Below are positions 9,898 to 23,988 of a stretch of DNA of 64,000 nt, piece by piece. The notes beneath the pieces were generated by a model, which was given only the letters and a program-made list of their open reading frames with translations, ran no database searches and was not told the origin of the DNA. Positions within the stretch are counted from its first letter, which is position 1; each line of letters begins with the position of its first letter. Origin of the DNA: Candidatus Binataceae bacterium (GTDB taxonomy: Bacteria; Desulfobacterota; Binatia; Binatales; Binataceae); the NCBI GenBank assembly GCA_035531615.1, contig DATKSQ010000092.1:4220-68219 (forward strand), given 5' to 3'. Position numbers and translations under genes: made by a program.

Positions 9898-10712
9898 CGC
9901 GTCGGCTTCTCAAAATAGACCACGTGCTGGCGGCCCACGTCGTCATCGATAGTCGCGCGCCTTGCTATCGGCTCGGCCACAATCTTTGTGAAGCCCGCCG
10001 AGCCGGCCAGCTCCGCCATTTCAGCCGGTGTGAACGTCACCATCCGGAGCTTGAGCCATTTCTCCCATCCCGTAAGCTCGCCCTGATTTAAGGCGGCGGC
10101 GGTATCGCCGGCCATAAAATGGCACACGCCGACACCGCCTGGCTTCAATACCCGATGAAGGCCTTTGAATACCGCACGGGTCAGTTTCTTGTCCAGATGT
10201 TGCAGCACGGCAATTGAATAGACAAAATCGATTTCCTCGTCCGGAACACATGTAATATTGGGGTCGCGGCTTACGCGGTAACTGATGTTCGGCGCTGCGT
10301 TGAGCACTTGCGCGCAGGCAATCACGCCGCGCGAGACGTCCACCCCAATCACTTGCCCGGCGAACTCGCTCACCGCTTTTGCCAGGTAGCCTGGGCCGCA
10401 CCCAAAATCGAGCAGGGACATCCCAGGGACCAGCGACGGTCTGATCAGGTTCGCGCAGATTGCGCGGCGTGACGCGACGTTTCGATTGAATTCCCGCTCC
10501 AGCACATCGATGCGTGCGGCGCCCACAGGATGGTCCGAAAAATGCGGGCTGAGTCCGAGCAATCGGATCGCAAGGTTGCGTCTGCGATGGATCGGCGCTG
10601 CCGCGAGCATCAACGGCACCACTGGCCGGTCAAGAAACGCTTGCTGTCTCGACAGCAAGGGAATGAGCGCTCGGCCGAGAATCTGGCCGGGCGATTTGCC
10701 GCCTAATCTCAC
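9894..10712 (-). CDS. Class I SAM-dependent methyltransferase
   Basis: LLDFGCGPG, GVDVS, VLQHL, LKPGG; GTG start downstream of GGAGG. Confidence 0.85.
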   Translation of the reverse strand: MRLGGKSPGQILGRALIPLLSRQQAFLDRPVVPLMLAAAPIHRRRNLAIRLLGLSPHFSDHPVGAARIDVLEREFNRNVASRRAICANLIRPSLVPGMSLLDFGCGPGYLAKAVSEFAGQVIGVDVSRGVIACAQVLNAAPNISYRVSRDPNITCVPDEEIDFVYSIAVLQHLDKKLTRAVFKGLHRVLKPGGVGVCHFMAGDTAAALNQGELTGWEKWLKLRMVTFTPAEMAELAGSAGFTKIVAEPIARRATIDDDVGRQHVVYFEKPTR

Positions 10713-10716
10713 TTCG

Positions 10717-11808
10717 CTAATAGTCCTCCGTTCGTGATTGCCCATCGGGCGGGCCATTTTTCCAGATGGATTGCGGCCGAGGCTGCGCCGCGGCAAGAAT
10801 TTCCGCCAGCCGGTCGGCATAGGTATTCCGCCCCTGCGTAATGCGCCGCAAGCCGGCCGCCGCGACGGCGCGCCGAGTATCGTCACGTGGCAGCCAGTCG
10901 CGAATTTTTCCGGTCATCTCATCGGGAGTGCTGAAGAACGCCGCCTCCCGATCCTCGGCGAACAATTCCTGATGCGTGTCCGTCCTCTCCGCCAGCACAA
11001 AGCCGCCGCAGGCCGGCAGCTCGAAGGTCCGCATGACATGGTCGTCGTGATTCGCGCGCCGGACCAAATTTACCGCGATCTTGGCGCCGCCAACCGCGAG
11101 CCGGAAATCGCGCCCGACCGCGTTTCCGCGCCAATACGGCCGCAGCTTCGGATAGCGGCCCCAATAGCCGCCGTACAGATGCAGGCGCAGCTCTGGAATC
11201 TCGCGGATTAGAGTCTCGAAGTAGGGGGCGCGGTCAGCATCGCCGCCCCCGATAAACGTCACATCGCAATCAAACCGCCGCCGCTCTTCGTCGGTGGCGG
11301 GCGGTTCAGGGAAATGCACCTGCGGCATATAACCGAAACGGACGTAAGCGACATTGCCGCATCCGGCCCGGCGCACGTCGTCCATGATCGCGCGCTTGGT
11401 GCATACGTAAAGATCGTACAGCGGTATCGATTCGATCAGTTCGCGGGTGCTGTTGGCCGGATTAAACGGATCGTCGGTGGCCCAGTTGATCAGGGTCGCG
11501 CCGGATGCCTCCCGGACGGCGGCGAGCGTGCCGGGTGCGAAGTAGGCGCCCTTGCCGATTAGCACCAAATCTGGGCGGATACGCCGCGCCTCGGCGACGA
11601 GCGCGGCGTTGAGCGCGCGATAACCGATTGGATGCCCGAGGATCCGACGTGCGACGCGGCTCGGGATCGAGGGCCGCGCGCCGAGATATTTTGCTTCATC
11701 GAAAAACACGAACTCGCATTCCCCGCGCGCCGCCATCGCCCCGAGCCCTTCGATAAAGTGCGCGCTCAAGGGCAGAAACGCGCTCGTCTCAGCGTACAGA
11801 ATTCGCAT
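10717..11808 (-). CDS. CgeB-like glycosyltransferase (Glyco_trans_1_2 type)
   Basis: MRILYAE, WATDDPF, DVTFIGG, MRTFELPACGGFVL. Confidence 0.8.
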   Translation of the reverse strand: MRILYAETSAFLPLSAHFIEGLGAMAARGECEFVFFDEAKYLGARPSIPSRVARRILGHPIGYRALNAALVAEARRIRPDLVLIGKGAYFAPGTLAAVREASGATLINWATDDPFNPANSTRELIESIPLYDLYVCTKRAIMDDVRRAGCGNVAYVRFGYMPQVHFPEPPATDEERRRFDCDVTFIGGGDADRAPYFETLIREIPELRLHLYGGYWGRYPKLRPYWRGNAVGRDFRLAVGGAKIAVNLVRRANHDDHVMRTFELPACGGFVLAERTDTHQELFAEDREAAFFSTPDEMTGKIRDWLPRDDTRRAVAAAGLRRITQGRNTYADRLAEILAAAQPRPQSIWKNGPPDGQSRTEDY

Positions 11809-12964
11809 CGGCTTGATTGAGGCGGCGTCCCGCGAGCGCGGTCTGATACATCGCCGCCATCCGCTCGCCGTAGCTGCTCCATCCGCCGAGCGACTGCACC
11901 CGCGCCAGCGCCGCGGCGCCCATCGCGTCACGAATGTCAGGATGCTCGTGCAGGAAGACCAGCTTGTCCGCTATCGCGGCTGCGTCACGAATCGGGACGA
12001 TAAAACCCTCGATACGGTCGGTGAAAAGGTCTTCGGCTCCCGTGTTCGTGGTCGCAATCACCGGAACGCCGCACGCCATCGCCTGCGCCATGACCAGCCC
12101 AAAGCCGTCCTCTATCGATGGAAGCACGAGGACCGAGGCCTGCGAGTAGTGCCCCGCCAGTTCGCCGCGTGGAAGTACGCCCAGATGGCGCAGTGGAACC
12201 CCGCAATTCCCCACCGTCTTTTTCGTATCGTCGTCCATAGATCCGATCAGCACCAGATCGAGGCCCGCAATCGCGGCGCGCTTCGCGGCTTCGAGCAGGT
12301 AGGCGATTCCCTTGCGGATCGATATCGATCCCACGAACAGGATGCGGAAGACCGAGTCGCGCTTCGGCATCGGATGGAACATCGAGAGATCGACGCCGTA
12401 GGGATTAAGCCGCAGCTTTTCGCGCGGCACGCCATATTCGAGGAACGAGCGCATCGCGAAGCTGGAGGGCACGCTGATCAAATCGCAGAATTCGTATTCG
12501 GCGAGTTCGCGATCGAGGATGCGCTGATCCGTGCCGCGAAACGGAATATCGAAGCGCGCGTATTCCTCGCGCAGAATCTCATTCTGAAACACTATGTGCG
12601 ACGAGCCGCGATCGCATACGGTCAGCGCGCCGTGGCGCGCGCGCGCCGCGCGATGGCTCTCAAGCCCAAACGAAGACAGGCAATGAAAGACCTCGCACGG
12701 CTCGACCCGCGCGGCCATCCAGCGGTCAAAGGTCTCGATCGCACGCATGTTCAGCCGCTCGCGCAAGCCCAGCATCCCGAACCGTCCCGCGATAGTCGCG
12801 GGTCCCATCAACCATGGAAAGGTACTGACTTTCCCGGCCGGCAATCCGTCAACCTTGAAGCGCGGATAGGCGGTATATAGCCGCGCCAGATGCCCGAGGC
12901 GCTCCATCTGCCGCGCCAGATCGAACGCCCAAAACGGCGCAGCGCTGGCAACTGCGACTTTGAT
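11789..12964 (-). CDS. GT4 glycosyltransferase; start uncertain (ATC 12964 aligns with the ATG of the duplicated stub)
   Basis: LFVGSISIRKG, PSIEDGFGLVMAQAMACG. Upstream in-frame ATGs at 13036/13057 overlap the start region of the divergent gene. Confidence 0.88.
   Translation of the reverse strand: MKVAVASAAPFWAFDLARQMERLGHLARLYTAYPRFKVDGLPAGKVSTFPWLMGPATIAGRFGMLGLRERLNMRAIETFDRWMAARVEPCEVFHCLSSFGLESHRAARARHGALTVCDRGSSHIVFQNEILREEYARFDIPFRGTDQRILDRELAEYEFCDLISVPSSFAMRSFLEYGVPREKLRLNPYGVDLSMFHPMPKRDSVFRILFVGSISIRKGIAYLLEAAKRAAIAGLDLVLIGSMDDDTKKTVGNCGVPLRHLGVLPRGELAGHYSQASVLVLPSIEDGFGLVMAQAMACGVPVIATTNTGAEDLFTDRIEGFIVPIRDAAAIADKLVFLHEHPDIRDAMGAAALARVQSLGGWSSYGERMAAMYQTALAGRRLNQADANSVR
12840..12964. 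repeat. Direct repeat copy 1 (5' end of GT4 gene)
   Basis: 125 bp, 15 mismatches against 14026..14150 by manual alignment (~88%). Confidence 0.95.
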
Positions 12965-13038
12965 CCGTGGGCATTGCGCGTTGCCTTTCGGGGAGGCAAC
13001 TTGACTTGCTTCCGCCAACGTTCCTAGGCTCCCCATCA

Positions 13039-14055
13039 ATGGATTCCCAACTGGCATCGGCGTTGGTCTGTCCGCGGGACCACTCCCCTCTGGAAACCTC
13101 CGGCCGCGCGCTGCGATGCGAAAGCGGCCACAGCTACCCGGTCATAGACGAAATTCCGGTCATGCTGCTGGACGATAGGGGGCAGACCCTGGGGGTCGCA
13201 AACGATGCGCTTCGCGAAGCTGCGCAATCGGAATCGGATTCGCCCGGCGAGCGACCGCTCGAACCAGAAGAGGTTGATAGTTACGTAGCGCACGCGATTG
13301 CCGCGACCGGGGGATTCTTTTACCTGCCGCTCATCGGGTCGCTTTCCGCGTATCCGATCCCGGCGCTCCGCCTGCCACCGGCATCGGGATCCCGCTTTCT
13401 CGACCTGGGATGTAATTGGGGGCGATGGTGTATTGCTGCGTCGCGGCTCGGATACGAGCCGTTCGGAATAGACCCCAGTCTCGACGGCGTGCGGGCAGCG
13501 CGCCGCGTGGCGAGCCAGCTCGGCGTCGCGGCTCACTACGCAGTTGCCGACGCGCGGTTTCTCCCATTCGCCGACGATAGTTTTGGGGTCGTGCATTCCT
13601 ACAGCGTGCTGCAGCATTTCAGCAAAGCCGACGCGAGGACCGCATTCACTGAGGCGGCGCGCGTTCTGCGCGCCGGAGGGACGGCGCTGGTTCAGATGCC
13701 GAACGTAATCGGTATCCGCAATTTGTATCATCAGGTGCGCCGTGGATTCCGCGAGCCGACCGGATTTGAAGTTCGATATTGGACACCGCGCGAGCTGCGC
13801 CAAACCGGTGAGAGTCTGATCGGACCGACCGAGATCTCCATCGATGGATTCTTCAGCCTGAACCCGCAACCCAATCAACTCCTTCCGCTGCGGTTTCGCA
13901 TGATCACAGGAGCATCGGAAATTTTGCGCCACACCGCCGAGTATATTCATCCGCTGCTTTATGCCGCCGATAGTCTGTACCTGACCGCTATAAAGACGCA
14001 GCACCATCAGCGCGATCGCTCCGCGGGCAATCCGTCCACCTTGAAGCGCGGATAG
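13039..14055 (+). CDS. Trm112-like domain fused to class I SAM methyltransferase (inverted relative to the operon)
   Basis: LVCPRDH..LRCESGHSYPVIDEIPVML followed by FLDLGCNWGRW and ADARFLPF; the only plus-strand gene in 1-37 kb. Confidence 0.88.
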   Translation: MDSQLASALVCPRDHSPLETSGRALRCESGHSYPVIDEIPVMLLDDRGQTLGVANDALREAAQSESDSPGERPLEPEEVDSYVAHAIAATGGFFYLPLIGSLSAYPIPALRLPPASGSRFLDLGCNWGRWCIAASRLGYEPFGIDPSLDGVRAARRVASQLGVAAHYAVADARFLPFADDSFGVVHSYSVLQHFSKADARTAFTEAARVLRAGGTALVQMPNVIGIRNLYHQVRRGFREPTGFEVRYWTPRELRQTGESLIGPTEISIDGFFSLNPQPNQLLPLRFRMITGASEILRHTAEYIHPLLYAADSLYLTAIKTQHHQRDRSAGNPSTLKRG

Positions 14056-14150
14056 GCGGTATAGAGGCGCGTCAGATGCCCGAGCCGCTCCATCTGCCGC
14101 GCCAGGTCGAACGCCCATAGCCGCCCCGCACTGGCTACTACGACTTTCAT
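14007..14150 (-). pseudogene. GT4 N-terminal stub (47 aa)
   Basis: MKVVVASAGRLWAFDLARQMERLGHLTRLYTAYPRFKVDGLPAERSR*. The ATG overlaps the upstream stop (ATGA). Homologous to the N-terminus of 11789..12964. Confidence 0.9.
14026..14150. repeat. Direct repeat copy 2 (5' end of GT4 gene)
   Basis: Aligns colinearly with 12840..12964 at an offset of 1186 bp. Confidence 0.95.
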
Positions 14151-15103
14151 GGATTCACGGCTTGCGCGGTGCGCACGCGCAGATAGATCGAGGAGGGAAA
14201 GTGGCTTTCTGGGTCATCGAAGAGAGGACTACCCGCACCGCGCAATCCATTTTCGGCCGGCTGTGGGTGATAATCCGGAAATACTTCTTGCAGGAGGCCA
14301 GGCCGATCGTAATGAAGCTGGGAGAGACAGAACGTAATCTCAACGCCGCGATTGCCGATCAGGAATGCATGCAGCAGCGCCGTTTCCTGCCACTGGAAGA
14401 AGGTTCGCAGCGCATCGCGCGGATAGTCGTAAGGCAGAAAAATATCGTGGAAGTGAACCACGACTCCCGGCTTAAGCCGCGGCAGCACCTCGAGGATCAG
14501 GAAGTTCGCGTCGCTGCCGGTCTTAACCGCGTGCGACGAGTCGATGAACAGGAAATCTCCGTCGCCAAGCGCCTCGAACAAATCGAAGGGGACCGCCTGC
14601 ACCGGTTTTTCTATCAGCGCCACCTGCGCGCCTTTAAGCCACGCGCTTGGATAGGGCTCTACGCAAGTGATCGCGCATCGCACGCCATTGCGCGCGGCGG
14701 CTTGCAGGATGCAATAGGTCGAGACCCCCGAACCCACCTCGACGATACGCTTTGGCTTGAGACTGCGGACGACGCAATGGAGCGCCTGCGCCTCTATATA
14801 CCCGTAGCCTGGTCCGCAGCCGGCTGAAAGGGCGCTAAAGTAATGGGGGTTGCCGTGAACCTCGGTTGCATACGGAGCGCAAATCTCACGCAACCGCGCG
14901 GCCTGCTGATCCAGGTCGGTCTCAACCCCCGCGAGCTGCGAGGGCTTGGCCCAAATATCCTTGCTCTTGGCGAGCTGAATAACGTCAGGAAAATCGATAT
15001 AGTAATGATTCGGAAGGACAACGGCCCCGCACCGCAGCCCGAGCTTATGGATTGAGAATAGCAACTCCTTGGCCCGGTTCTTGAGTTTTCGCTTAATCGA
15101 CAT
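14147..15103 (-). CDS. Class I SAM methyltransferase (Methyltransf_24-like)
   Basis: IVEVGSGVST, LFIDSSH.VKTGSD, LKPGVVVHFHDIFLPYDYP. Confidence 0.88.
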   Translation of the reverse strand: MSIKRKLKNRAKELLFSIHKLGLRCGAVVLPNHYYIDFPDVIQLAKSKDIWAKPSQLAGVETDLDQQAARLREICAPYATEVHGNPHYFSALSAGCGPGYGYIEAQALHCVVRSLKPKRIVEVGSGVSTYCILQAAARNGVRCAITCVEPYPSAWLKGAQVALIEKPVQAVPFDLFEALGDGDFLFIDSSHAVKTGSDANFLILEVLPRLKPGVVVHFHDIFLPYDYPRDALRTFFQWQETALLHAFLIGNRGVEITFCLSQLHYDRPGLLQEVFPDYHPQPAENGLRGAGSPLFDDPESHFPSSIYLRVRTAQAVNP

Positions 15104-15105
15104 CG

Positions 15106-15237
15106 CTATGCGCGTTTCCCAGCGACGATGGCGATGCGCAGATGGCGGCGCAGCCAGCGCAGGCGGTCATAGACCATCGGATCGCCCTGGATAAACATCG
15201 CGCGCCATCCGAGGAGGCGAATCAGCGGGTCAGTCAT
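15106..15237 (-). pseudogene. MTDP stub copy C (43 aa truncated gene start)
   Basis: MTDPLIRLLGWRAMFIQGDPMVYDRLRWLRRHLRIAIVAGKRA*; the stop lies 2 nt before the next ATG. Confidence 0.75.
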
Positions 15238-15302
15238 GGGAGCACCGGCATCATTGCTTGCGGGCGGTGCCTTGGCTGGTGAAATCGCATCGCTCCAGGC
15301 CC
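15178..15302. repeat. Direct repeat (3' end of the 17365 gene + spacer + MTDP start), copy C
   Basis: About 10 mismatches over 116 bp against 17292..17407; offset 2114 bp. Confidence 0.95.
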
Positions 15303-15331
15303 ATGTCTGCGCTTTTTCATCGAAATCACGC

Positions 15332-16219
15332 TCAGCCGTTCGCAGAGGCTGGTTTGGCAAGAATATCCGCGACGAGGTCCGGCCGCGCTCGGTTCGCGGG
15401 ACTCAGCGGCAGCTCACTGCCATCTTTCAAGAGATTATAAAATTCGTATTCAGCAATGCTCCGCAGGTACCCGACGACGTCATCCTGGGTGTATCCGAAC
15501 CGCTCGCTGTTGATGTCGCTCTCGAAGACAATCACTGGGCGATGAGAAGCGAGGGTCTTATGCGCGCCCTGAAACGCCGCCAACTCGCCGCCCTCGATAT
15601 CGATCTTGATCACATCAGGTGGCGGAATCTCGCCACTCGCCACCATTTCGTCGATCGTGGCCGCAGGGCACACCAAGGCTCTTGAACGCTTTTCGCGGGC
15701 GACCGCGGAGGCATGTATCTGATGTGATCCAATGAAGAGACGGCCCGAACCTGGCGTATTTCCAAGCATGACTGGGAGCACTTTCAATCGGCGGAAGGCG
15801 TTCAGGCCAGCCGACCGGGCGATCGCGAGCGCGAGATCCGGTTGGGGCTCGACCGCAATCACAAAAACCTGATCGTTAAAGAATCGCGCGACTTCGACCG
15901 ACATGTAACCTACGTTCGCCCCGATGTCGTAGAAGACCTTGTCTTTTCCGAGATAGCGAGCGCAGGCAAGAAAGACGTGGTAGTCCCACGACCCGCCGTT
16001 GTTCAGAAGATTTGCGAATACGTCGAAACTCCTGGAGGTTACCGCCAGCTTGCCCCCGTGTTTCGTCGGTACCCACTGATTGCCATCGGTGGAAAAACGC
16101 CCGGCCAAACGTGGAAACCATCCTTTGCCCCGGGGAACGTACTTTGCCCAGAGGCGGGCCAAGTCGAGCGCAAGACCGATATTTCCTTTGTCAGGCGTGT
16201 TCGATTTTTCGATGTTCAT
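15332..16219 (-). CDS. FkbM-family methyltransferase
   Basis: VFYDIGANVGY, AVEPQP, VIKIDIEGGE. Confidence 0.92.
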   Translation of the reverse strand: MNIEKSNTPDKGNIGLALDLARLWAKYVPRGKGWFPRLAGRFSTDGNQWVPTKHGGKLAVTSRSFDVFANLLNNGGSWDYHVFLACARYLGKDKVFYDIGANVGYMSVEVARFFNDQVFVIAVEPQPDLALAIARSAGLNAFRRLKVLPVMLGNTPGSGRLFIGSHQIHASAVAREKRSRALVCPAATIDEMVASGEIPPPDVIKIDIEGGELAAFQGAHKTLASHRPVIVFESDINSERFGYTQDDVVGYLRSIAEYEFYNLLKDGSELPLSPANRARPDLVADILAKPASANG

Positions 16220-16227
16220 CGTCAGAC

Positions 16228-16317
16228 TCAGTTAACCCAAGCGGGGTAAACAAGCCGGAGGAGTTCCGGCCGCGCTGGAACGCGCCACCCGAGGACGCGA
16301 ATCAGCGGGTCAGTCAT
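16228..16317 (-). pseudogene. MTDP stub copy B (29 aa)
   Basis: MTDPLIRVLGWRVPARPELLRLVYPAWVN*; 16281..16319 matches copies A and C at 37/39 nt. Confidence 0.75.
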
Positions 16318-16342
16318 GGATTCAATCAATCGGGCAACCCAC

Positions 16343-17272
16343 TCAGACTCTGCCGGCCCCGCCGCAAGGCCAGAAGGCGGCAAGATGCTCCGGCGGCACG
16401 ATCAGCACCTCGCACTCGGTGAAACCGGGTTCGGCCCGGAAACGCGCGAGCGAATGGGCAAATTGAGATCTGCCGGTAACCCCAAATACCGTCGCGCCGT
16501 CATAGAAGCACGAACGAAGCCCGGCCTCGCCGCCCAATTCGTTTAGCCCCGGCTCCGAGAGCTCCAGCAAGACGAACGGGCGATCGCGCGCGAAAACCGC
16601 CTTGAGGCCGCGAAGGACGGCAGGCTCAAAGCCCTCTACATCGATCTTGAAGATCCCAACGCCGGAGATTCCCTTCTCAGCCAGGAACTCGCTGGCTTGC
16701 CTGACCTCGATTGGAATGGAGGCGCGCGCGTTGCCGCCATGCGTCGCGAGAAAGGAGCCGGTCCCCTCGTTAACCGTGCATGGCGGAAAATACGCCATGG
16801 TCTCGTCCCGATCGCCGAGCGCGGTCTCAAATAAGGTGGCGTTTGCGATGTGGTTCAGTTCAATCTTTTCACGGGCACGCCGCAGGACGGACCCGTTCGG
16901 GTCAAACCCGTACAACTCATCGGCAAGGCCGCTCATAAGCAGCAGGTGATGACCGACGTTGACGCCGATATCCACATACACGACGCGCCGGCCGCGGCGG
17001 CGAAGATAACGGGCCGCGCGATCAAGGACGCTGAGCTCGGAGGGCGCGTGAGCTCCGTAAAGCAGCACGACCCAGTCGAGATAGTTCTTGGTATTTCCGC
17101 GGTAGCGTAAGCCGAAAAAGTCCACCTCGAAAGGCAGATCATAGCCCCGGTCGGGATTTAGGATCATAAACAAGAGCCGGTTTTGCCCCCTGAGTATCCA
17201 GCGTTGATGGCCTAGCCATCTCGCGAATCGAACCCGCAAGGGGAATTGGTTGGCGAATTTATCGTCAGGCAT
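16343..17272 (-). CDS. FkbM-family methyltransferase
   Basis: YVDIGVNVGHH, GFDPN, FKIDVEGFE. Confidence 0.92.
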   Translation of the reverse strand: MPDDKFANQFPLRVRFARWLGHQRWILRGQNRLLFMILNPDRGYDLPFEVDFFGLRYRGNTKNYLDWVVLLYGAHAPSELSVLDRAARYLRRRGRRVVYVDIGVNVGHHLLLMSGLADELYGFDPNGSVLRRAREKIELNHIANATLFETALGDRDETMAYFPPCTVNEGTGSFLATHGGNARASIPIEVRQASEFLAEKGISGVGIFKIDVEGFEPAVLRGLKAVFARDRPFVLLELSEPGLNELGGEAGLRSCFYDGATVFGVTGRSQFAHSLARFRAEPGFTECEVLIVPPEHLAAFWPCGGAGRV

Positions 17273-17351
17273 TATCAACCCCGAACCAAACCGGATCGCC
17301 CTGGATAAACATCGCGCGCCATCCGAGGACGCGAATCATCGGGTCAGTCAT
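17265..17351 (-). pseudogene. MTDP stub copy A (28 aa)
   Basis: MTDPMIRVLGWRAMFIQGDPVWFGVDNA*; its end overlaps the ATG of the FkbM gene. Confidence 0.75.
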
Positions 17352-17415
17352 GGGGATGTCGGCATCACTGCTTGCGGGCGGCGCCCTGGCTGGTGAAATC
17401 GCATCGCGCGAGGCC
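17292..17415. repeat. Direct repeat copy A (gene end + spacer + MTDP start)
   Basis: Colinear with 15178..15302. Confidence 0.95.
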
Positions 17416-18162
17416 GTGCGCGCTGCAGAAGTCCGGCCAGGCGGAATGGCCTAGGATATCGTCGCTCCACATCACGCCGCCCGGCCTCAGAAATGGCAGC
17501 GCAGTCTCGAATTCCCACATCATGTGGTCGTAGGAGTGGTCGCTGTCATGGATGAATATGTCGATCGAGCCGAGCGACTGGAGCAGCGGCGGCAGTTTCT
17601 CGCGCGCGTCGCCTGACACTACAGTATGGCGTTCAAGCAGGGCGCCGGGAATCGCCCATCCCGAGGTCAGGCCATCAGGGGTGAAGGAGTGGCCCTCGGC
17701 GGGATTCAGCTCGCGGCCGTCCGCGGGCGGCGGGGCGAGATCGACGGTCCATAGATGGCCGGCGGCGTTGCGATCGAGCGCGCGCAGGATAAAGGCCGAG
17801 GACTTGCCGGGGGTGCCTCCAGTCTCGACGATTTTTTCGGGGCGCATGATCCGGGTCAGCGCATAGAGCGCCACGCATGAGAAGAACATCGTATTGCCGT
17901 CGGGGGCGACCATGAAGTCAGTCGGCAGCGGGAAATAGTTTACGTGCTCGCGATAGCGGCCTCGGACGTCGGCGGTGAACTCGCGATCGTTTTCGATCTC
18001 GCGGCAGAAGCGGTCGGCCTCGGCGGATGAGGAGCCGGTAAGGCGGGCGAGTGAATCGTTGCGCACGCGCCGGAACTTTCCATATTGGAGCATCAATCGC
18101 GCGCGATTGACGATAGTGCGTGGCCGGCGGATCGCGATTCCAGCCGCTTCAATCCAATTCAT
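17365..18162 (-). CDS. Class I SAM methyltransferase (Methyltransf_24-like)
   Basis: IVETGGTPGKSS, DIFIHDSDHSY.HM.WE, LRPGG..WSDD. Confidence 0.88.
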   Translation of the reverse strand: MNWIEAAGIAIRRPRTIVNRARLMLQYGKFRRVRNDSLARLTGSSSAEADRFCREIENDREFTADVRGRYREHVNYFPLPTDFMVAPDGNTMFFSCVALYALTRIMRPEKIVETGGTPGKSSAFILRALDRNAAGHLWTVDLAPPPADGRELNPAEGHSFTPDGLTSGWAIPGALLERHTVVSGDAREKLPPLLQSLGSIDIFIHDSDHSYDHMMWEFETALPFLRPGGVMWSDDILGHSAWPDFCSAHGLARCDFTSQGAARKQ

Positions 18163-19456
18163 TTTGATGTTCAACCGAACTCCTTCGGCATCGCGCAGCC
18201 GGATCGTCCGCCACACCGGCGAGCGCAAGCAGTCTTTCCAGCACGGGGGCGAAGACCTGCTCGTAGTTGTATTTGGTTTCGTGCGCGCGGCGCGCCGCGA
18301 GGCTCATCGCGATATAGCGATCGCGGTCGGCGAGGATGAACTCGATCGCGCGGGCGATCGACGCGGGGTCTTCGGGATTGGCGTACGCGACCCATTCGTC
18401 ATCGGCGAAGAACTCGCGGAAGCTCTTGCGATCGGGAACCACCACCGGCAAGCCCCACGCCGCGTACTCGAACAACTTGTTGGGCGACGGCCCCGAATGC
18501 TCCCAGTTCGGGTTCGCGGCGTGATAGAGCACCAAGCCCACGGCCGCATCCTCGGCGCGCCGGATGCGCTCCGGATTCGGCACCCATCCGGCGATACTCA
18601 CGCGGCCCGCAAGCGCAAGTGCGGCGGCCATCTGCGAGAGCCGTATGCGATATTCCGGCGTGCTGAAGCCGATCAAGTCGAGAGCTACCGGAGCGGGCAG
18701 AAATTCGAGCGCGCGGATCGCGTCGGGCTGGCCGTTTTCGGCGCCCATCGAACCCACGTAGAGGACGCGCTTTGATTCCCAGCGGCGACGCGCCAACGCG
18801 CTCCAATCTTCGTCTTCGCGGGGCGGGTAGAAATCGCGCGCGGCGCCGTTGGGGATGATCATCGGCGGGCGCGGATCGCGGGCCTTATCGAGCCAGATCG
18901 GCGCGCGATATTTCGACGGAAAGATCGTGAACGCGGCGTCGCGCGTGTGGCGCATCGCATAGCGTAAAATCCAGTCCTGGAGCGACGCGAGCCGGACGCG
19001 GCCGAGCGCGGGAGTGTCGTGGCAGTGGAACACCACGGGGATATCTTTGCGCCGCGGGCCGAGCGCCGCGATCGAGGCGGCAAAGCCGATCGGATCGTAG
19101 GCGTAAATCAATGCGGGTCCGGTTTCGGCGATTACGCAACCCAGGCGGCGCACGAATCTTCGATACCACGACAGCTTGCGCCATGCGGGCGCATCGAAAG
19201 CCTGAGCCGCGGTGATAATCTCGCCGACCCGCTCGATCGTAACTCCGGGCGCCCAATCCGCCGCCGGTCCCGCGTCATTGCGGCATACGATTTGCACCTC
19301 GAAACGCTCGCTCATCATGCGCACGCCGTTGACGGTCGGCGGGTGGTAGTTGGGATTCGCGTACATCACGACGAGCAGGCGCGGGCGCGCGCGCGCGGCG
19401 GGAGTGATAGCCGGCGCGGGCGCGGCGCTAATTCGCGGTGGCGATGATGTGGCCAT
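18149..19456 (-). CDS. GT4 glycosyltransferase
   Basis: VLYVGSM, SPNKLFEYAAWGLPVV, DPASIARAI. Confidence 0.88.
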   Translation of the reverse strand: MATSSPPRISAAPAPAITPAARARPRLLVVMYANPNYHPPTVNGVRMMSERFEVQIVCRNDAGPAADWAPGVTIERVGEIITAAQAFDAPAWRKLSWYRRFVRRLGCVIAETGPALIYAYDPIGFAASIAALGPRRKDIPVVFHCHDTPALGRVRLASLQDWILRYAMRHTRDAAFTIFPSKYRAPIWLDKARDPRPPMIIPNGAARDFYPPREDEDWSALARRRWESKRVLYVGSMGAENGQPDAIRALEFLPAPVALDLIGFSTPEYRIRLSQMAAALALAGRVSIAGWVPNPERIRRAEDAAVGLVLYHAANPNWEHSGPSPNKLFEYAAWGLPVVVPDRKSFREFFADDEWVAYANPEDPASIARAIEFILADRDRYIAMSLAARRAHETKYNYEQVFAPVLERLLALAGVADDPAARCRRSSVEHQNELD

Positions 19457-19458
19457 AG

Positions 19459-20385
19459 TCAATGAATCACGCGCCGCAGGATCGCGTTCAGTTGGCATCC
19501 CTGTCCGCGTTCTGCGGCGTGCCGGTAGCGGAACCGAGTCAGGGAATTGCGGATCGCGACCTGCGGTTCGAGCATCAGTCTCAGTGGCCGCGGCAGAGCA
19601 TTCAACCGATATTGCATCGGCGCAACCGGGTAGCCCTCGGACCACGACTTGACGACTTCGAGGCCGTGGCTGCGGGCAAGATGCCCGAGGCTCTCTCGCG
19701 ACAGGTAATGCAGATGCTCGTAATTGATATGCAGATGGCACCATCGGTCGCCGGCCGCGCTCAGACCGCCTGCGTCAGGGGTGGAAACATAGATCGAACC
19801 GGCCGGCGCAAGACATCGCGCGGCCTCGTGGAGGAACGCGTCGAGCGCAGTCACGTGCTCGATTACATCGACCATCAAAATCAGATCGAATTCGCCTGGA
19901 GCAAAGTGCGCATCCTCGAGCGCCGCGCGCCGAAGATCGAGTCCGTAGCGCGTGCGTCCGAACTCGAGCGGTTCATCGGCGATATCGATTCCGACCAGCC
20001 GCCGGGGAGCATGGCGGCCGAGGCTCTGGAGCAAAGCACCGCTGGCGCATCCGATATCGAGCACGGATTTGCCGCCCAGCTCGAAATTAGCCGTGACCTC
20101 GCGGTACCCGGTAACATTACCGGCCTCGATCGAACGGTCGCGAACCTCGCAATAATTTTGTCCGTTGAAGAAATCCGAAGCGCCCGAGAAGTAGCCATTC
20201 TGGTAGCGCGAGAGTAGCGCCGAGGGCCTCGGCGCCGGATCGACAAATAGCAGGCCGCATCCACCGCAAGCCCGCAGGGGCAGACGGTCGCCACGATGCG
20301 CGACGAGAGGACCGTCCGGGCGCGCGCCGCATCCGGGGCACTCGAGGCGCGCCGCCAAGTCCTCAGAGTTCCAGGCTGGATTCAT
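19459..20385 (-). CDS. Class I SAM methyltransferase with N-terminal CxxC...CxxC
   Basis: CPGCG..CGGCG, VLDIGCASG, DVIEHV, EHLHY. Confidence 0.9.
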   Translation of the reverse strand: MNPAWNSEDLAARLECPGCGARPDGPLVAHRGDRLPLRACGGCGLLFVDPAPRPSALLSRYQNGYFSGASDFFNGQNYCEVRDRSIEAGNVTGYREVTANFELGGKSVLDIGCASGALLQSLGRHAPRRLVGIDIADEPLEFGRTRYGLDLRRAALEDAHFAPGEFDLILMVDVIEHVTALDAFLHEAARCLAPAGSIYVSTPDAGGLSAAGDRWCHLHINYEHLHYLSRESLGHLARSHGLEVVKSWSEGYPVAPMQYRLNALPRPLRLMLEPQVAIRNSLTRFRYRHAAERGQGCQLNAILRRVIH

Positions 20386-20445
20386 GCTGCTCGCATGCGG
20401 TAGTGCCTCGCGAAGGCGCGCATCTCGCGCGCGGCGTTAATCCGC

Positions 20446-21783
20446 TCAAGCCGATTCATGCGCGATGCTCCCCCATCCGGGATGTGCGATCGCGCGCGTA
20501 AATTCCCTGCCACTCATGCCGATAGCTCTAAGCGCCGCCGCCGGCAAATACCATCCGTTGGTCACCAGCCGTGCCGTGACCGTGGCGGCGACCACGCCCG
20601 CGGTTCCGAAGTGGCGTACCCACCACAACGACAGCGCCAAGTTGAGCGCAGCCTCGACCATGGCAAGCGCGGCATAGCCGTAATGGTGGGTGGTCGCCAT
20701 CAGGACCGCGTCCGCAGGAATCAGCAGCACGGACATGAAAAGAAGCGCCGCTTGCCATGCGAAGGTGGGACGGCCCGGAAATACGGTTGGACCGACCCAC
20801 AATCGGAGGAATGCCGGCCCTGCGAAGAAAAACAAAGATGTCGCGCAAAGCGCGTAGATTACCGAAAGTCTGGAAACCGCAACGAACCCGTCCGACACGG
20901 TGGCGCGATCGCCGCGCGTGAAGCGTGCGGTTAGCGTAGGCCATAGCGCGGTCGTGCCGACGGAGAAAACGCTGGTCGCAATCAGCGCAAGCCGCATCGG
21001 TACGGCGTATCGGGTTACCGCGGACCCGCCGAGCGCGTAACCGATAACCAGATTGTCCGCGCCAAAAACGAGGCTCGATCCGATCGAGAGTCCCAGGAAT
21101 CCCAGGCTCGGCTTGGCGAGATCGCGCACCACGGAGAACGAGCAACGCCTCAAGAGCGGACGCCCCTGCGGGAAGAGCCGGAGCGCAATGACGGTCGCCG
21201 CAATGCCCCCGCCAAGTCCCACCGCGCCTTGCACGATAGAAATCGCAACGAGCTTTTGTCCCGCGAGCATGACCGCGGCCAATCCTGCTACCCGGGCGAT
21301 ATTGGCAACGGCGGCAATCGCCTGCTCGCGATCGACGCGCTCGATACCGCGCAGAAGGGTCGCATACAGCCGCAGCGGATATGCGGCGGCGGTGAATGCA
21401 ACGAACAGCGCGCAGGCCGCTGTCGCTCGCGTGCTTGCACGCGGTGCGAGCCGGGCAGCCAGAGCCGGAGTCAGTATTGCGGCGCTTGCGATCACCGTGA
21501 AGGCCAGGACAACGTAGAACCAAAACGAGGTTGAAACGATCCGCGAAATCTCCGCGCTCTGGCGGCGGGCGGAGGCCTCGGCGATCCGGTTGCCGATCGC
21601 TTGCCACGAGCCGAGCCCGACGATGCCCAAATAGGAGCCAATTCCCACGATCACCAGCCATTGGCCGTAGAGCTCGCTCCCCAGGCATCGAACGTAAATC
21701 GGGATCAAAATCAGCGGTGCGGCGAAGCCGACCACGAAGTTCACATAGCTCCAGACGACGTTGCCGCGGATCGAGACTGTCAT
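20446..21783 (-). CDS. Wzx-type polysaccharide flippase (MOP superfamily)
   Basis: 12-14 TM pattern; GSELYGQW, ADNLVIGYALG..VTRYAV. Confidence 0.85.
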   Translation of the reverse strand: MTVSIRGNVVWSYVNFVVGFAAPLILIPIYVRCLGSELYGQWLVIVGIGSYLGIVGLGSWQAIGNRIAEASARRQSAEISRIVSTSFWFYVVLAFTVIASAAILTPALAARLAPRASTRATAACALFVAFTAAAYPLRLYATLLRGIERVDREQAIAAVANIARVAGLAAVMLAGQKLVAISIVQGAVGLGGGIAATVIALRLFPQGRPLLRRCSFSVVRDLAKPSLGFLGLSIGSSLVFGADNLVIGYALGGSAVTRYAVPMRLALIATSVFSVGTTALWPTLTARFTRGDRATVSDGFVAVSRLSVIYALCATSLFFFAGPAFLRLWVGPTVFPGRPTFAWQAALLFMSVLLIPADAVLMATTHHYGYAALAMVEAALNLALSLWWVRHFGTAGVVAATVTARLVTNGWYLPAAALRAIGMSGREFTRAIAHPGWGSIAHESA

Positions 21784-22901
21784 CAGACATATCGCCTGGC
21801 GGCAACCGTATGCGCAGCGGCATTGGCCTCGGCCCCCTGCGCGATATCGCGCAACGCGCGATCGATGATCTCGGCGTCGGGTGCGATTGATTCGATCGCC
21901 GTCCGACGGCGCTTATTCCGGGAACGGAGCGCCAGCCGCATTCCTGCGCGCGCTGCCCTTCCGGTCAGTCGATCTCCCGCAAGGCATCTTAGTATCGCGG
22001 CGCGAACCGGATCGCGGAAATAGCTGAATTCAAAACCGGCGCCCTTCTTAGCTAAATCGCTCCTCCCGGTAAGCGCCGCTCCGACGGCTTGGCGGAAGAC
22101 CCATTCCCGGAAACCCTTGCGGAGGTCGGCGCGCATTTCCGCGGTGAGCCTGGGGTTGAGTTCGCCCGCCTTCAACCCCTCGTCGATAGCCGCCGTGATG
22201 TTGCTAACAATTCTGGGCATATCGTGCAGCCAGGTCAGAAATGGATCCTCGCGGTAGTTGGAAGAGGGATACATGAAAAAAACCGCCGAGGGATGATGCG
22301 AGACAATCGCACTATGCCGCGATGCGGCACGCACCTCGAAATCAACGTCGCCGCACGAGCCGACCACCAGATCGAGTCCGCCCGAACGCCGTATCACAGA
22401 GGTCCGAAACACCATTCCGGTCCAGGTCAGCGAGGAGCGAAGCCGGATCAGGCGCTTGAATATCGATGGGACCGGACTGAAGCCTTCCGCCCAGAGTTTA
22501 ACCGGCTCGCCGATAATTCGTCCGTCCAAATCCGCCTGCAGTTGATTGCCGATGAAAAACCCAGCGCGTGGTTCGCGCTCCAATTCAGACAGCGCGACGG
22601 TGAAAAATCCGGGTAAAAGAATATCGTCGTCGCTCAGGATGCTGAAGTAAGGGGATTCGACGTGGTTCATGGCGTACGCGAAGTTCGGCATCATCCCGAC
22701 GTTGTTGGGATGGCGGAAGTATTTGACCCGGGCATCGCGCCGCATGATGTCGCCGACCACAGCGGCGGTATCATCCCCCGAGCAATCGTCGTAAACAGCG
22801 ACCTCGAAATCGGCGAAGTCCTGCGCGAGCACGCTGAGAATCGCGCGGCGCAACAACTCGGGCCGCCTGAAAGTTGGAATGACGGTCGTGATCAATGCCA
22901 T
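21783..22901 (-). CDS. GT2 glycosyltransferase
   Basis: VIPTFRRP, VYDDCSGD, LSDDD. Confidence 0.92.
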   Translation of the reverse strand: MALITTVIPTFRRPELLRRAILSVLAQDFADFEVAVYDDCSGDDTAAVVGDIMRRDARVKYFRHPNNVGMMPNFAYAMNHVESPYFSILSDDDILLPGFFTVALSELEREPRAGFFIGNQLQADLDGRIIGEPVKLWAEGFSPVPSIFKRLIRLRSSLTWTGMVFRTSVIRRSGGLDLVVGSCGDVDFEVRAASRHSAIVSHHPSAVFFMYPSSNYREDPFLTWLHDMPRIVSNITAAIDEGLKAGELNPRLTAEMRADLRKGFREWVFRQAVGAALTGRSDLAKKGAGFEFSYFRDPVRAAILRCLAGDRLTGRAARAGMRLALRSRNKRRRTAIESIAPDAEIIDRALRDIAQGAEANAAAHTVAARRYV

Positions 22902-22929
22902 CGAATCAATCTTAATTCAGCTTAACTAC

Positions 22930-23988
22930 TTACTTCGTCGCGGTGAGCAGAATTTCTTCGCCTGCGGGCATTATCCAATTCAAGCCGCGCTCGATGCGGC
23001 AAAAGGTTCCGGCAAGAATGGTCTCCACCCGCGATTGAGCGCGACCCGCCGCGAAGCGGCCGGTTCGGCGAATCGAGAGACTGGCGACAAGGATCCATCC
23101 AGAGGTATGCGTGCTCGCCACGGTCTTAGCACGCGAAAATCCCGCTTGGCGCGCGAGTTCGGAGAGCGCCTCGGGTGTGAACAACATCAGGTGCCTGGGC
23201 GGGTCAAGGTGGGCCCAGTTGCTGCCGAAAAGCCGGTGCCCAACACTTCGAATGTTGGGAGTGGCAATGGACAACTGGCCGCCGGATTTGAGCACGCGTC
23301 TAGCCTCGCTCAGAACCGCAAGCGGATCGGGTACGTGTTCGATCGAATGGATCATCGTCACCGCGTCGAAGCTGTCGGCCGGGTAGCGGTGCTCACCCAA
23401 GCTGCCCAATTCGACGTTTAGTCCACGCCGGTTGGCACTCCGAACCGCCTCGGGATCGAAATCGACTCCGTGCGGCTCCCAACCAAGTGATTTCATGGCA
23501 AGAAGGAAGTCGCCCGATCCGCATCCGACGTCGAGGAGCCTTCCTCCTGGAATCGCACGCAGCCTCATCACCAAGGTTTCGACAAACTCGCGCCGCGCAG
23601 GCATTACCCAAGCAATGAGGGCTGCGAGGCGATGCGCTGCCGTCGCACCTCCCTGTGGAACGTAGCCGAAGCGCGACCACAGGTAACTCTCGCGCACGAA
23701 TCGGCTGGCGCGGCGCAGCGCGCTAGCCGGGCCGACGGAGCCGGCCGCTGGCGCCACAGAATCGTCTTGCTGGTGGGTAAAATAGGCCGCGTAAGCAAGC
23801 CCGAGATCTTCTGCCAGCGGCGCCGGATTCAACCACATGGAACGGCATCGCCGATTTGCGCATTTCATCAAGGACCACCGGCCCGGAGCCGCGAAGAGCC
23901 TGTCCGTAAGATCGGCATAGGTAGGCACGCCGCCGGATCCGCAGAGCGGGCAATTCGGTCGGGTAACGGTGCGAATTGTACGAGCCAT
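22930..23988 (-). CDS. Class I SAM methyltransferase with N-terminal Cys cluster
   Basis: CPLCG..CANRRC, LLDVGCGSG, HSIEHVPDP, DPPRHL. Confidence 0.9.
   Translation of the reverse strand: MARTIRTVTRPNCPLCGSGGVPTYADLTDRLFAAPGRWSLMKCANRRCRSMWLNPAPLAEDLGLAYAAYFTHQQDDSVAPAAGSVGPASALRRASRFVRESYLWSRFGYVPQGGATAAHRLAALIAWVMPARREFVETLVMRLRAIPGGRLLDVGCGSGDFLLAMKSLGWEPHGVDFDPEAVRSANRRGLNVELGSLGEHRYPADSFDAVTMIHSIEHVPDPLAVLSEARRVLKSGGQLSIATPNIRSVGHRLFGSNWAHLDPPRHLMLFTPEALSELARQAGFSRAKTVASTHTSGWILVASLSIRRTGRFAAGRAQSRVETILAGTFCRIERGLNWIMPAGEEILLTATK

Follow-up and report, generated by a model that had tools for sequence, protein, structure and literature searches.

In O-antigen, capsule and exopolysaccharide clusters, the remnants of earlier exchanges lie in a hypervariable tailoring zone between conserved glycosyltransferase genes, with truncated fragments at the module borders and mosaic segments that have different nearest relatives. 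Campbell-type insertion-duplication places an insert between direct repeats that copy the native target; both flanking genes can stay whole, and recombination between the repeats would excise the insert precisely. In homology-facilitated illegitimate recombination, foreign genes enter beside a short homology, and the far-side joints are formed without homology. In the toxin-tip arrays of Rhs and contact-dependent growth inhibition (CDI) systems and the orphan arrays of type VI secretion system (T6SS) effector-immunity genes, a piece of a resident gene heads successive modules and provides homology for the next one. Integron cassettes are single promoterless open reading frames (ORFs) stacked in one direction, operon-like, with a similar short sequence ahead of each. 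Traits of all these systems recur in the locus described here, which lies in a 64,000-nt stretch of DNA (the window) from a Candidatus Binataceae bacterium and in which two genes of the FkbM family stand between copies of one and the same gene boundary. The window has 63% GC and lies on the 70-kb contig C92 of the metagenome-assembled genome (MAG) G000 (153 contigs); all coordinates without a contig name are window positions, and minus-strand genes read 5′ to 3′ in descending coordinates.

Combining the analyses below, we read the locus, with a probability of about 0.68, as a set of scars in a surface-polysaccharide operon: a gene junction would have been duplicated at an insertion that kept both neighbours whole, and homologous shuffling would then have taken place at the gene-start stubs. 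The structure is real and well resolved but an ordinary recombination scar; it is neither a new kind of genetic element nor a demonstrated switch.

The duplicated MT24a/MTDP boundary

The repeat search found two direct repeats of 124 nt each at 90% identity (copies A and B, Table 1), 2114 nt apart from start to start. A base-by-base count gave 112 identical positions out of 124, that is, 12 mismatches, with a longest exact run of 38 nt. The repeats announced in a preliminary description of this DNA (~120 bp long, 2114 bp apart, ~10 mismatches in 116) are thus present. A third, partial copy of 39 nt (copy C) is 95% identical to each of the other two, and a 39-nt consensus with up to three mismatches allowed matched only copies A, B and C (0 matches expected, from 100 shuffles). 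This family and a 128-nt pair belonging to the GT4 gene start were the only non-chance local direct repeats in the whole window.

Each long copy runs from the last 51 nt of one gene, MT24a, across a spacer of 13 nt into the first 60 nt (20 codons) of another, MTDP. The MT24a end inside the repeat reads RCDFTSQGAARKQ up to the stop codon, and the ATG after the spacer opens MTDP(L/M)IR(V/L)LGWRAMFIQGDP (MTDP(L/M)IR(V/L)LGWR), so that the content proposed in the preliminary description (a gene's 3′ end, a spacer and an MTDP start) can be read directly as a duplicated gene junction. Judged by its sequence, the repeat is the native boundary of two predicted methyltransferase genes, MT24a and the class I gene MTDP. 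It is a copy of the uninterrupted native target, since it can be aligned with the MT24a orthologue ends and intact MTDP starts of sister genomes. In copy B, the upstream part belongs to the intact MT24a, whose final 51 nt it comprises. Orthologues of this gene (72-75% amino acid identity) occupy the same cluster position in the genomes G010 and G013, and its C-terminus, GLARCDFTSQGAARKQ before the stop, aligns with theirs; in public gene calls MT24a starts at 18174 and encodes 269 aa. The dead MT24a fragment in copy A ends in GLERCDFTSQGTARKQ and a stop codon.

The divergence between copies A and B is uneven, with 5/51 mismatches in the MT24a part, 5/13 in the spacer, where they form one contiguous block, and 2/60 in the MTDP part (Fisher p = 0.03). 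Such a distribution fits a mosaic made by exchange, in which neutral decay would have acted in the copy A tail and a swapped spacer would have come with the FkbM-2 module. The similarity of the MTDP starts could reflect either an origin from a close relative or homogenisation.

MTDP is intact, with 249-250 aa and the same N-terminus, in G007, G005, G003, G009, G010 and G025; it lies between the same conserved glycosyltransferase genes in the first five, and its context differs in G025. The full-length protein matches Methyltransf_23/11, and its S-adenosylmethionine (SAM) motif, LDAGCGNG, begins at residue 41. Within the window, by comparison, the gene is represented by three short stubs. Stub B keeps 20 MTDP codons and reads MTDPMIRVLGWRAMFIQGDP followed by 8 foreign codons; its TGA falls 2 nt past the ATG of FkbM-2 (ATGCCTGA), and the stub agrees with the beginning of the intact G007 gene at 55/60 nt. 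Stub C keeps 12 MTDP codons, its first 37 nt being MTDP start and the following 53 nt unrelated sequence, and its stop lies 8 nt ahead of the ATG of FkbM-1 (TGA + 8 nt + ATG). In stub A, the first 33 codons of MTDP (5′ 102 nt) continue in frame into its last 10. Compared with the G007 gene (L027:700-1449), stub A has lost 206 codons (~0.62 kb) between TATCTG(C/A)GC microrepeats; its stop and its TAGCGATG junction to MT24b are still the native ones, exactly as in G007. An in-frame loss with this 2-nt junction kept may reflect slippage with selection for the junction, or a one-in-three chance. All three window copies are dead stubs without the SAM-binding motif and are predicted to have no enzymatic role. 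Of the MTDP start named in the preliminary description, the sequence itself is confirmed, whereas the live gene that it seemed to open is not there.

The 5′ end of MTDP was also considered as a specially conserved recombination site. The comparison lends this no support, since identity among full-length orthologues is 71-77% over the first 100 nt, as in the remainder of the gene.

The two FkbM modules

As stated in the preliminary description, the long repeats enclose two FkbM genes together with the third partial copy. Both genes match PF05050 (46.0 and 59.7 bits; curated cut-off 22.7) and belong to the FkbM family of predicted sugar methyltransferases. They are only 23% identical to each other and share no DNA similarity beyond the junction copies, which rules out a tandem duplication of one FkbM gene. 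The inserts hold the FkbM ORFs only. Both genes are under purifying selection, with dN/dS values of 0.15 for FkbM-1 (against its relatives on the contigs L044 and L043) and 0.17 for FkbM-2 (against a 72% copy on contig C90), comparable with 0.15 for MT24b against G007.

Their distribution is that of accessory genes. Sister loci lack the two genes at this position, and neither FkbM-1 nor FkbM-2 was found in the 10 other species of the genus or in ~150 genomes of the family (E<=1e-40), except for one 47% match; the pair is not invariant across the clade. Homologues of FkbM-2 with ~70% identity occur in unrelated surroundings, and the similarity does not reach beyond the ORF. The contexts of the closest FkbM-2 and MT24a homologues were checked as possible donors; homology ended at the ORF ends and no donor was found. 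One 70% FkbM-2 homologue (L045:4653-5543; L045/L046, ENA ERZ27248265 / ERZ27248002) adjoins pectate-lyase-like (tailspike-type) and ParE toxin genes and an ERF / YqaJ / HNH recombination module, a neighbourhood that looks like a phage or prophage with a glycan-modifying methyltransferase.

The JGI contig L044 (JGI 3300054963, 2.7 kb) is 92% identical to window 16317-15136, and its features follow one another as a membrane-protein gene, an MTDP stub of 37 nt, a diverged stretch, FkbM-1, a dead MT24a tail, the spacer and an intact MTDP. FkbM-2 is absent, and the membrane-protein gene occupies its place upstream. Between the window and L044, the FkbM-1 ORF is 95.6% identical in nucleotides, and the L044 MTDP is intact for at least 143 codons, to the end of the contig. 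Each flanking gene is thus preserved in one whole copy, MT24a in the window and MTDP 3′ of FkbM-1 in L044. The presence of the FkbM-1 module without FkbM-2 in L044 indicates that this module predates the split of the two lineages and is independent of FkbM-2. The dead MT24a tail of L044 (GLARCDFTSQGATRKQ before the stop) differs from the live MT24a end of the window at 2 of ~57 nt. From this near identity it follows that the duplication arose within this lineage. It also rules out an import of the copy A tail from a distant lineage, which a Glu that this tail has in common with G010 and G013 had suggested. The dead tail in copy A has since drifted by ~10%, roughly the neutral rate (dS 0.13).

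Several further observations concern the L044 version. In the stretch between the MTDP stub and the FkbM-1 start (window 16228-16280 against L044:1233-1285), ~7/31 positions differ, well above the FkbM-1 dS of 0.13. The L044 FkbM-1 orthologue (L044:1294-2145) lacks 12 residues (EMVASGEIPPPD) just ahead of the KIDIEGGE motif and may either have been inactivated or represent natural length variation. Exact-pattern scans of metagenome contigs for the MTDP start gave 0 matches, even in the sample from which L044 itself came.

The contig C90 (= L040, 3019 nt), binned in the same MAG, carries FkbM-2′, which is 72% identical to FkbM-2, and is itself 97% identical to L043 (ENA ERZ25039477 contig_14197). 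The order on C90 and L043 is MT24a end, a gene for a 283-aa methyltransferase, a GT4 stub, FkbM-2′, 27 nt, a full 262-aa MTDP-type gene and GT4. The window can be aligned with C90 from the 3′ end of FkbM-2 through the spacer of 25-27 nt into the MTDP start, and stub C is therefore the remnant of an MTDP-type gene natively 3′ of FkbM-2. C90 is a second, divergent version of the window's locus; it probably belongs to a related Binataceae organism and was binned here by mistake, and would then not be a second locus of the genome. By these comparisons, FkbM-1 and FkbM-2 are two modules with separate histories. The single two-gene FkbM islet of the preliminary description has to be given up, considering the 23% identity, the occurrence of FkbM-1 alone in L044 and the native FkbM-2-spacer-MTDP arrangement in C90/L043.

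The minus-strand order of the locus is MT24a, copy B, FkbM-2, copy C, FkbM-1, copy A, MT24b and a GT4 start stub, followed by an inverted class I methyltransferase gene and then the GT4 gene (Table 1). MT24b is 89.5% identical in amino acids to the G007 gene directly 3′ of the intact MTDP.

Table 1. Features of the duplicated boundary and its neighbourhood (window positions)
Feature	Position	Strand	Support
MT24a, intact SAM methyltransferase gene	17365..18228	-	Methyltransf_24, PF13578 E 1e-17
Copy B: live MT24a 3′ end, 13-nt spacer, first 60 nt of MTDP	17292..17415	-	
Stub B, dead 28-codon ORF	17265..17351	-	read from sequence
FkbM-2, intact FkbM-family gene, accessory insert	16343..17272	-	PF05050 E 8e-12
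Stub C, dead 29-codon ORF (repeat copy C, 16281-16319)	16228..16317	-	read from sequence
FkbM-1, intact FkbM-family gene, second independent accessory insert	15332..16219	-	PF05050 E 5e-16
Dead 3′ fragment of an MT24a copy, right after the FkbM-1 stop codon	15251..15325	-	
Copy A: dead MT24a 3′ fragment, spacer, first 60 nt of the MTDP remnant	15178..15301	-	
Stub A, resident MTDP gene cut from 249 to 43 codons	15106..15237	-	comparison with intact G007 gene
MT24b, second Methyltransf_24 gene, native downstream partner of MTDP	14147..15103	-	PF13578 E 1e-14
GT4 gene-start stub, partner of 12837-12964	14023..14150	-	128-nt repeat
Class I methyltransferase gene bracketed by the GT4 repeat, inverted (sister instance of the architecture)	12967-14055	+	

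Recurrence of duplicated boundaries and history of the locus

The likeness to the GT4 repeat, which the preliminary description had already pointed out, extends far beyond the window. Self-comparison of related copies of the cluster revealed about nine more duplications of a junction or gene start round other accessory genes, 35-146 nt long and 75-94% identical, so that the pattern recurs about a dozen times within one Binataceae cluster family. The GT4 start is duplicated over 146 nt (88%) round a methyltransferase gene in G007, over 79 nt (75%) in G003 contig 11 and over 45 nt (82%) in G010. The MTDP start is duplicated over 46 nt (80%) round a 272-aa gene of no Pfam family in G009 and over 35 nt (94%) in L044. 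The 3′ end of GT4big, the preceding glycosyltransferase, is duplicated over 93 nt (78%) round MT24a itself in G010 (L026). In L043, 78 nt of a GT4 3′ end together with 49 nt of the next gene's start surround an 86% relative of FkbM-1 in a different slot, and a degenerate GT4 stub precedes FkbM-2′ in C90, L043 and L050. G013 has the minimal state, with GT4 directly 3′ of MT24a. The duplicated sequence varies from event to event and is always whichever native gene boundary was hit. The GT4 stubs of G007 and the window might go back to one ancestral stub that gene conversion later homogenised: the copies are 88% identical within a genome and 80% between genomes, but their breakpoints lie ~12-18 nt apart. 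A literature search for this junction-duplication architecture found nothing specific.

Some other differences were noticed among the related loci. G003 contains two MTDP-GT4 versions, on contigs 1 (L023) and 11 (L024), whose MTDP genes are 98% identical, and an extra methyltransferase gene behind the 79-nt GT4 stub occurs only on the 4.8-kb contig 11, which suggests that strains combined in one assembly differ in the presence of a cassette. Upstream of an FkbM-2 relative, L050:2000-2560 (Logan SRR28211855) retains both ends of the gene for the 283-aa methyltransferase with an internal deletion between them, and a degenerate GT4 stub with a stop codon follows the joined ends, another instance of gene decay next to insertion scars. 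Between the flippase gene and the Methyltransf_23 gene, G005 and G003 have an FkbM-like gene of 273 aa (L022:5879-6700, L023:4004-4825), where the window (19459-21783) has only ~60 nt, a further difference in FkbM presence or absence. MT24a homologues with 84% identity adjoin an IS21-type transposase/IstB pair (L053-L056, JGI 3300037138 and others; L053:3276-4091) in a glycan locus organised differently from that of the window, and these contexts imply that MT24a-type genes also move between loci.

From the arrangements in the window, L044 and C90/L043 we infer the following order of events, together with the molecular route of the first duplication and the argument on which insertions survive. 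The ancestral order would have been MT24a, 13-nt spacer, MTDP and MT24b, in a variable methyltransferase zone. FkbM-1 would have been inserted first, duplicating ~130-150 nt of the MT24a/MTDP boundary and producing MT24a, spacer, a 12-codon MTDP stub, FkbM-1, a dead MT24a tail, spacer and an intact MTDP. The duplication might be due to a circularised fragment that integrated through a single Campbell-type crossover, or else to template switching with upstream re-entry. In the surviving events the left joint would lie in the start of the downstream gene and the right joint in the end of the upstream gene, whereby the junction is duplicated. The genes of this operon overlap or stand at most 15 nt apart, so that two illegitimate joints placed at random would nearly always hit genes; with such packing (0-15 nt) only insertions that overlap a junction would spare both neighbours, and selection would keep these. 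FkbM-2 would have arrived later, by homologous exchange with a variant that had FkbM-2 directly upstream of an MTDP-type gene; crossovers in the short MTDP starts would have left stub B ahead of FkbM-2 and stub C behind it. As the last step, slippage between short repeats would have removed the 206 codons from the resident MTDP. In their present form the stubs may serve as passive homology patches for the gain, the swap or, rarely, the loss of modules, and exchange at these patches would explain why FkbM-2 in the window and the membrane-protein gene in L044 stand ahead of the same stub.

Several points weigh against this history. No circular or other intermediate form was seen, and the molecular route of the duplication was not observed. 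The insertion order is deduced from a single 2.7-kb contig, L044, together with a single variant locus (C90/L043). No donor was found that has exactly the joint of stub B and FkbM-2, and the genome is an 87%-complete MAG. Moreover, the stubs are nearer to one another (58/60, 35/37) than to the gene of any other species (at most 55/60), a pattern that could stem from duplication in situ, from gene conversion or from very close donors.

Alternatively, a larger MT24a-MTDP segment (elsewhere GT4) might have been fully duplicated round the FkbM genes and whittled down later by deletions. Bacterial genomes are deletion-biased, stub A is demonstrably the deletion remnant of a whole gene, and the methyltransferase gene in L050 has been cut to two fragments by an internal deletion. 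Random decay, however, should yield a broad range of sizes with frameshifts, whereas the other stubs fall in the narrow range of 35-146 nt and end near the start of the inserted gene, and among the ~12 related loci neither a pair of full-length copies nor a large remnant occurs, which makes this course of events unlikely. We also think it improbable that the stubs are selected translation leaders, at which ribosomes start at the MTDP ATG, stop by the FkbM start and re-initiate, so that the FkbM genes are expressed. The stub ORFs do end 2-8 nt from the next start or overlap it, the large deletion in stub A preserves the reading frame as well as the native stop and junction, and the stop and spacer of stub C are identical in L044. 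On the other side, the stub C peptide is not conserved in its foreign part between the window and L044, an open frame of ~20 codons is estimated to be expected by chance about half the time at 63% GC, and the GT4 stub runs into an inverted gene, where coupling is impossible. Translational coupling that helps the expression of the inserted genes is at best weakly suggested by these junctions.

The preliminary description held that recombination between copies A and B would remove both FkbM genes cleanly, and the geometry agrees: the direct repeats have the right orientation, and the product would be a clean operon of MT24a, which stays whole, spacer, MTDP remnant and MT24b. That RecA-type recombination regularly deletes the 2114 nt and maintains a subpopulation with unmethylated glycan, as a reversible excision switch, is nevertheless very improbable. 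The copies are only 90% identical with a perfect run of no more than 38 nt, the loss would be irreversible and hence no switch, no recombinase was found nearby, and both FkbM genes are under purifying selection; furthermore, six assembled contigs (50-200 kb) encode identical FkbM-2 and MT24b proteins with the same neighbours, and 6/6 carry both FkbM genes. These contigs speak equally against an assembly chimera, in which strain versions of the locus would have been stitched in series through the shared junction sequence, as might be feared in a MAG of 153 contigs that has a second divergent version of the locus (C90) binned in. A MEGAHIT contig in ENA (104,848 nt, a length different from that of C92) is 100% identical over 12,825 nt (window 10343-23167), with both repeats included, and the unrelated JGI contig L044 reproduces stub, FkbM-1, MT24a tail and MTDP. 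An exact run of at most 38 nt is short for a k141 MEGAHIT join, and sister genomes show the same kind of duplication. Together these facts make a chimeric join very unlikely, indeed scarcely credible. Junction duplication at insertion, followed by homologous shuffling at the stubs, thus remains the reading that we prefer.

Comparison with known systems

The locus was also examined for the machinery and the signatures of dedicated mobile elements. No tyrosine recombinase (PF00589) was found on the 70-kb contig C92 and no serine recombinase (PF00239) in the MAG. The repeats gave no Rfam match and no promoter, and their folding was no better than that of shuffled sequences (z +0.7, +1.6, -0.05); one terminator-like match corresponds to a GC-rich coding start, and a conserved RNA or regulatory element in the repeat was rejected on these grounds. 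No inverted repeats bracket the inserts, and the duplications (37-146 nt) are too long for the target-site duplications of transposons and insertion sequence (IS) elements (2-15 bp); with inserts made up of FkbM ORFs only, a transposon or IS insertion was likewise dismissed. An integron cassette array was discarded as well, given the lack of an attC-like fold, of an Rfam match and of a tyrosine recombinase on the contig.

What the locus offers is an unusually complete reconstruction of how the surface-polysaccharide decoration may change in an uncultured bacterium. In net terms, a compact operon would have lost one class I methyltransferase and gained two FkbM genes stepwise, and no mobile-element machinery would have been involved. 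From the repeated occurrence of the pattern a rule suggests itself, namely that tightly packed operons keep only boundary-duplicating insertions. In practice, this would help to annotate stub ORFs as scars and to predict exchangeable glycan genes. A more far-reaching idea, tentative and in our view rather doubtful, is that in Binataceae, and perhaps in glycan loci widely, the duplicated boundaries constitute a recombinase-free cassette system with docking patches and a donated translation start. If it were true, every insertion would give rise to two short docking patches, the stub and the live gene start, at which ordinary homologous recombination between strains could exchange, stack or discard tailoring genes, and the promoterless newcomer would receive its translation start from the stub.

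Set against the described systems, the Binataceae scars differ from the remnants in O-antigen, capsule and exopolysaccharide clusters in that they are systematically duplicated junctions, with no IS elements at the borders. Unlike in Campbell-type insertion-duplication, no circular intermediate, plasmid or vector was seen at the window's locus, the homology is very short (37-150 nt), and the inserts comprise little beyond the ORFs themselves (0-60 nt extra); an identical product would be expected from template switching. The classical form of homology-facilitated illegitimate recombination replaces sequence and doesn't duplicate the anchor, whereas the window would need an extra step, which could be circularisation, unequal exchange or back-switching. 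In the Rhs/CDI arrays the duplicated piece is the end of a conserved core, whereas in the window it is a gene start with the end of the preceding gene, and the inserts are unrelated to the stub gene rather than its displaced alleles, so that the analogy is functional only. Integron cassettes, finally, depart from the window in their attC sites and their integrase: the window has neither attC-like imperfect palindromes nor IntI or any other tyrosine recombinase on the contig, and its repeats are ordinary coding DNA of the neighbouring genes, which differs from one event to the next.

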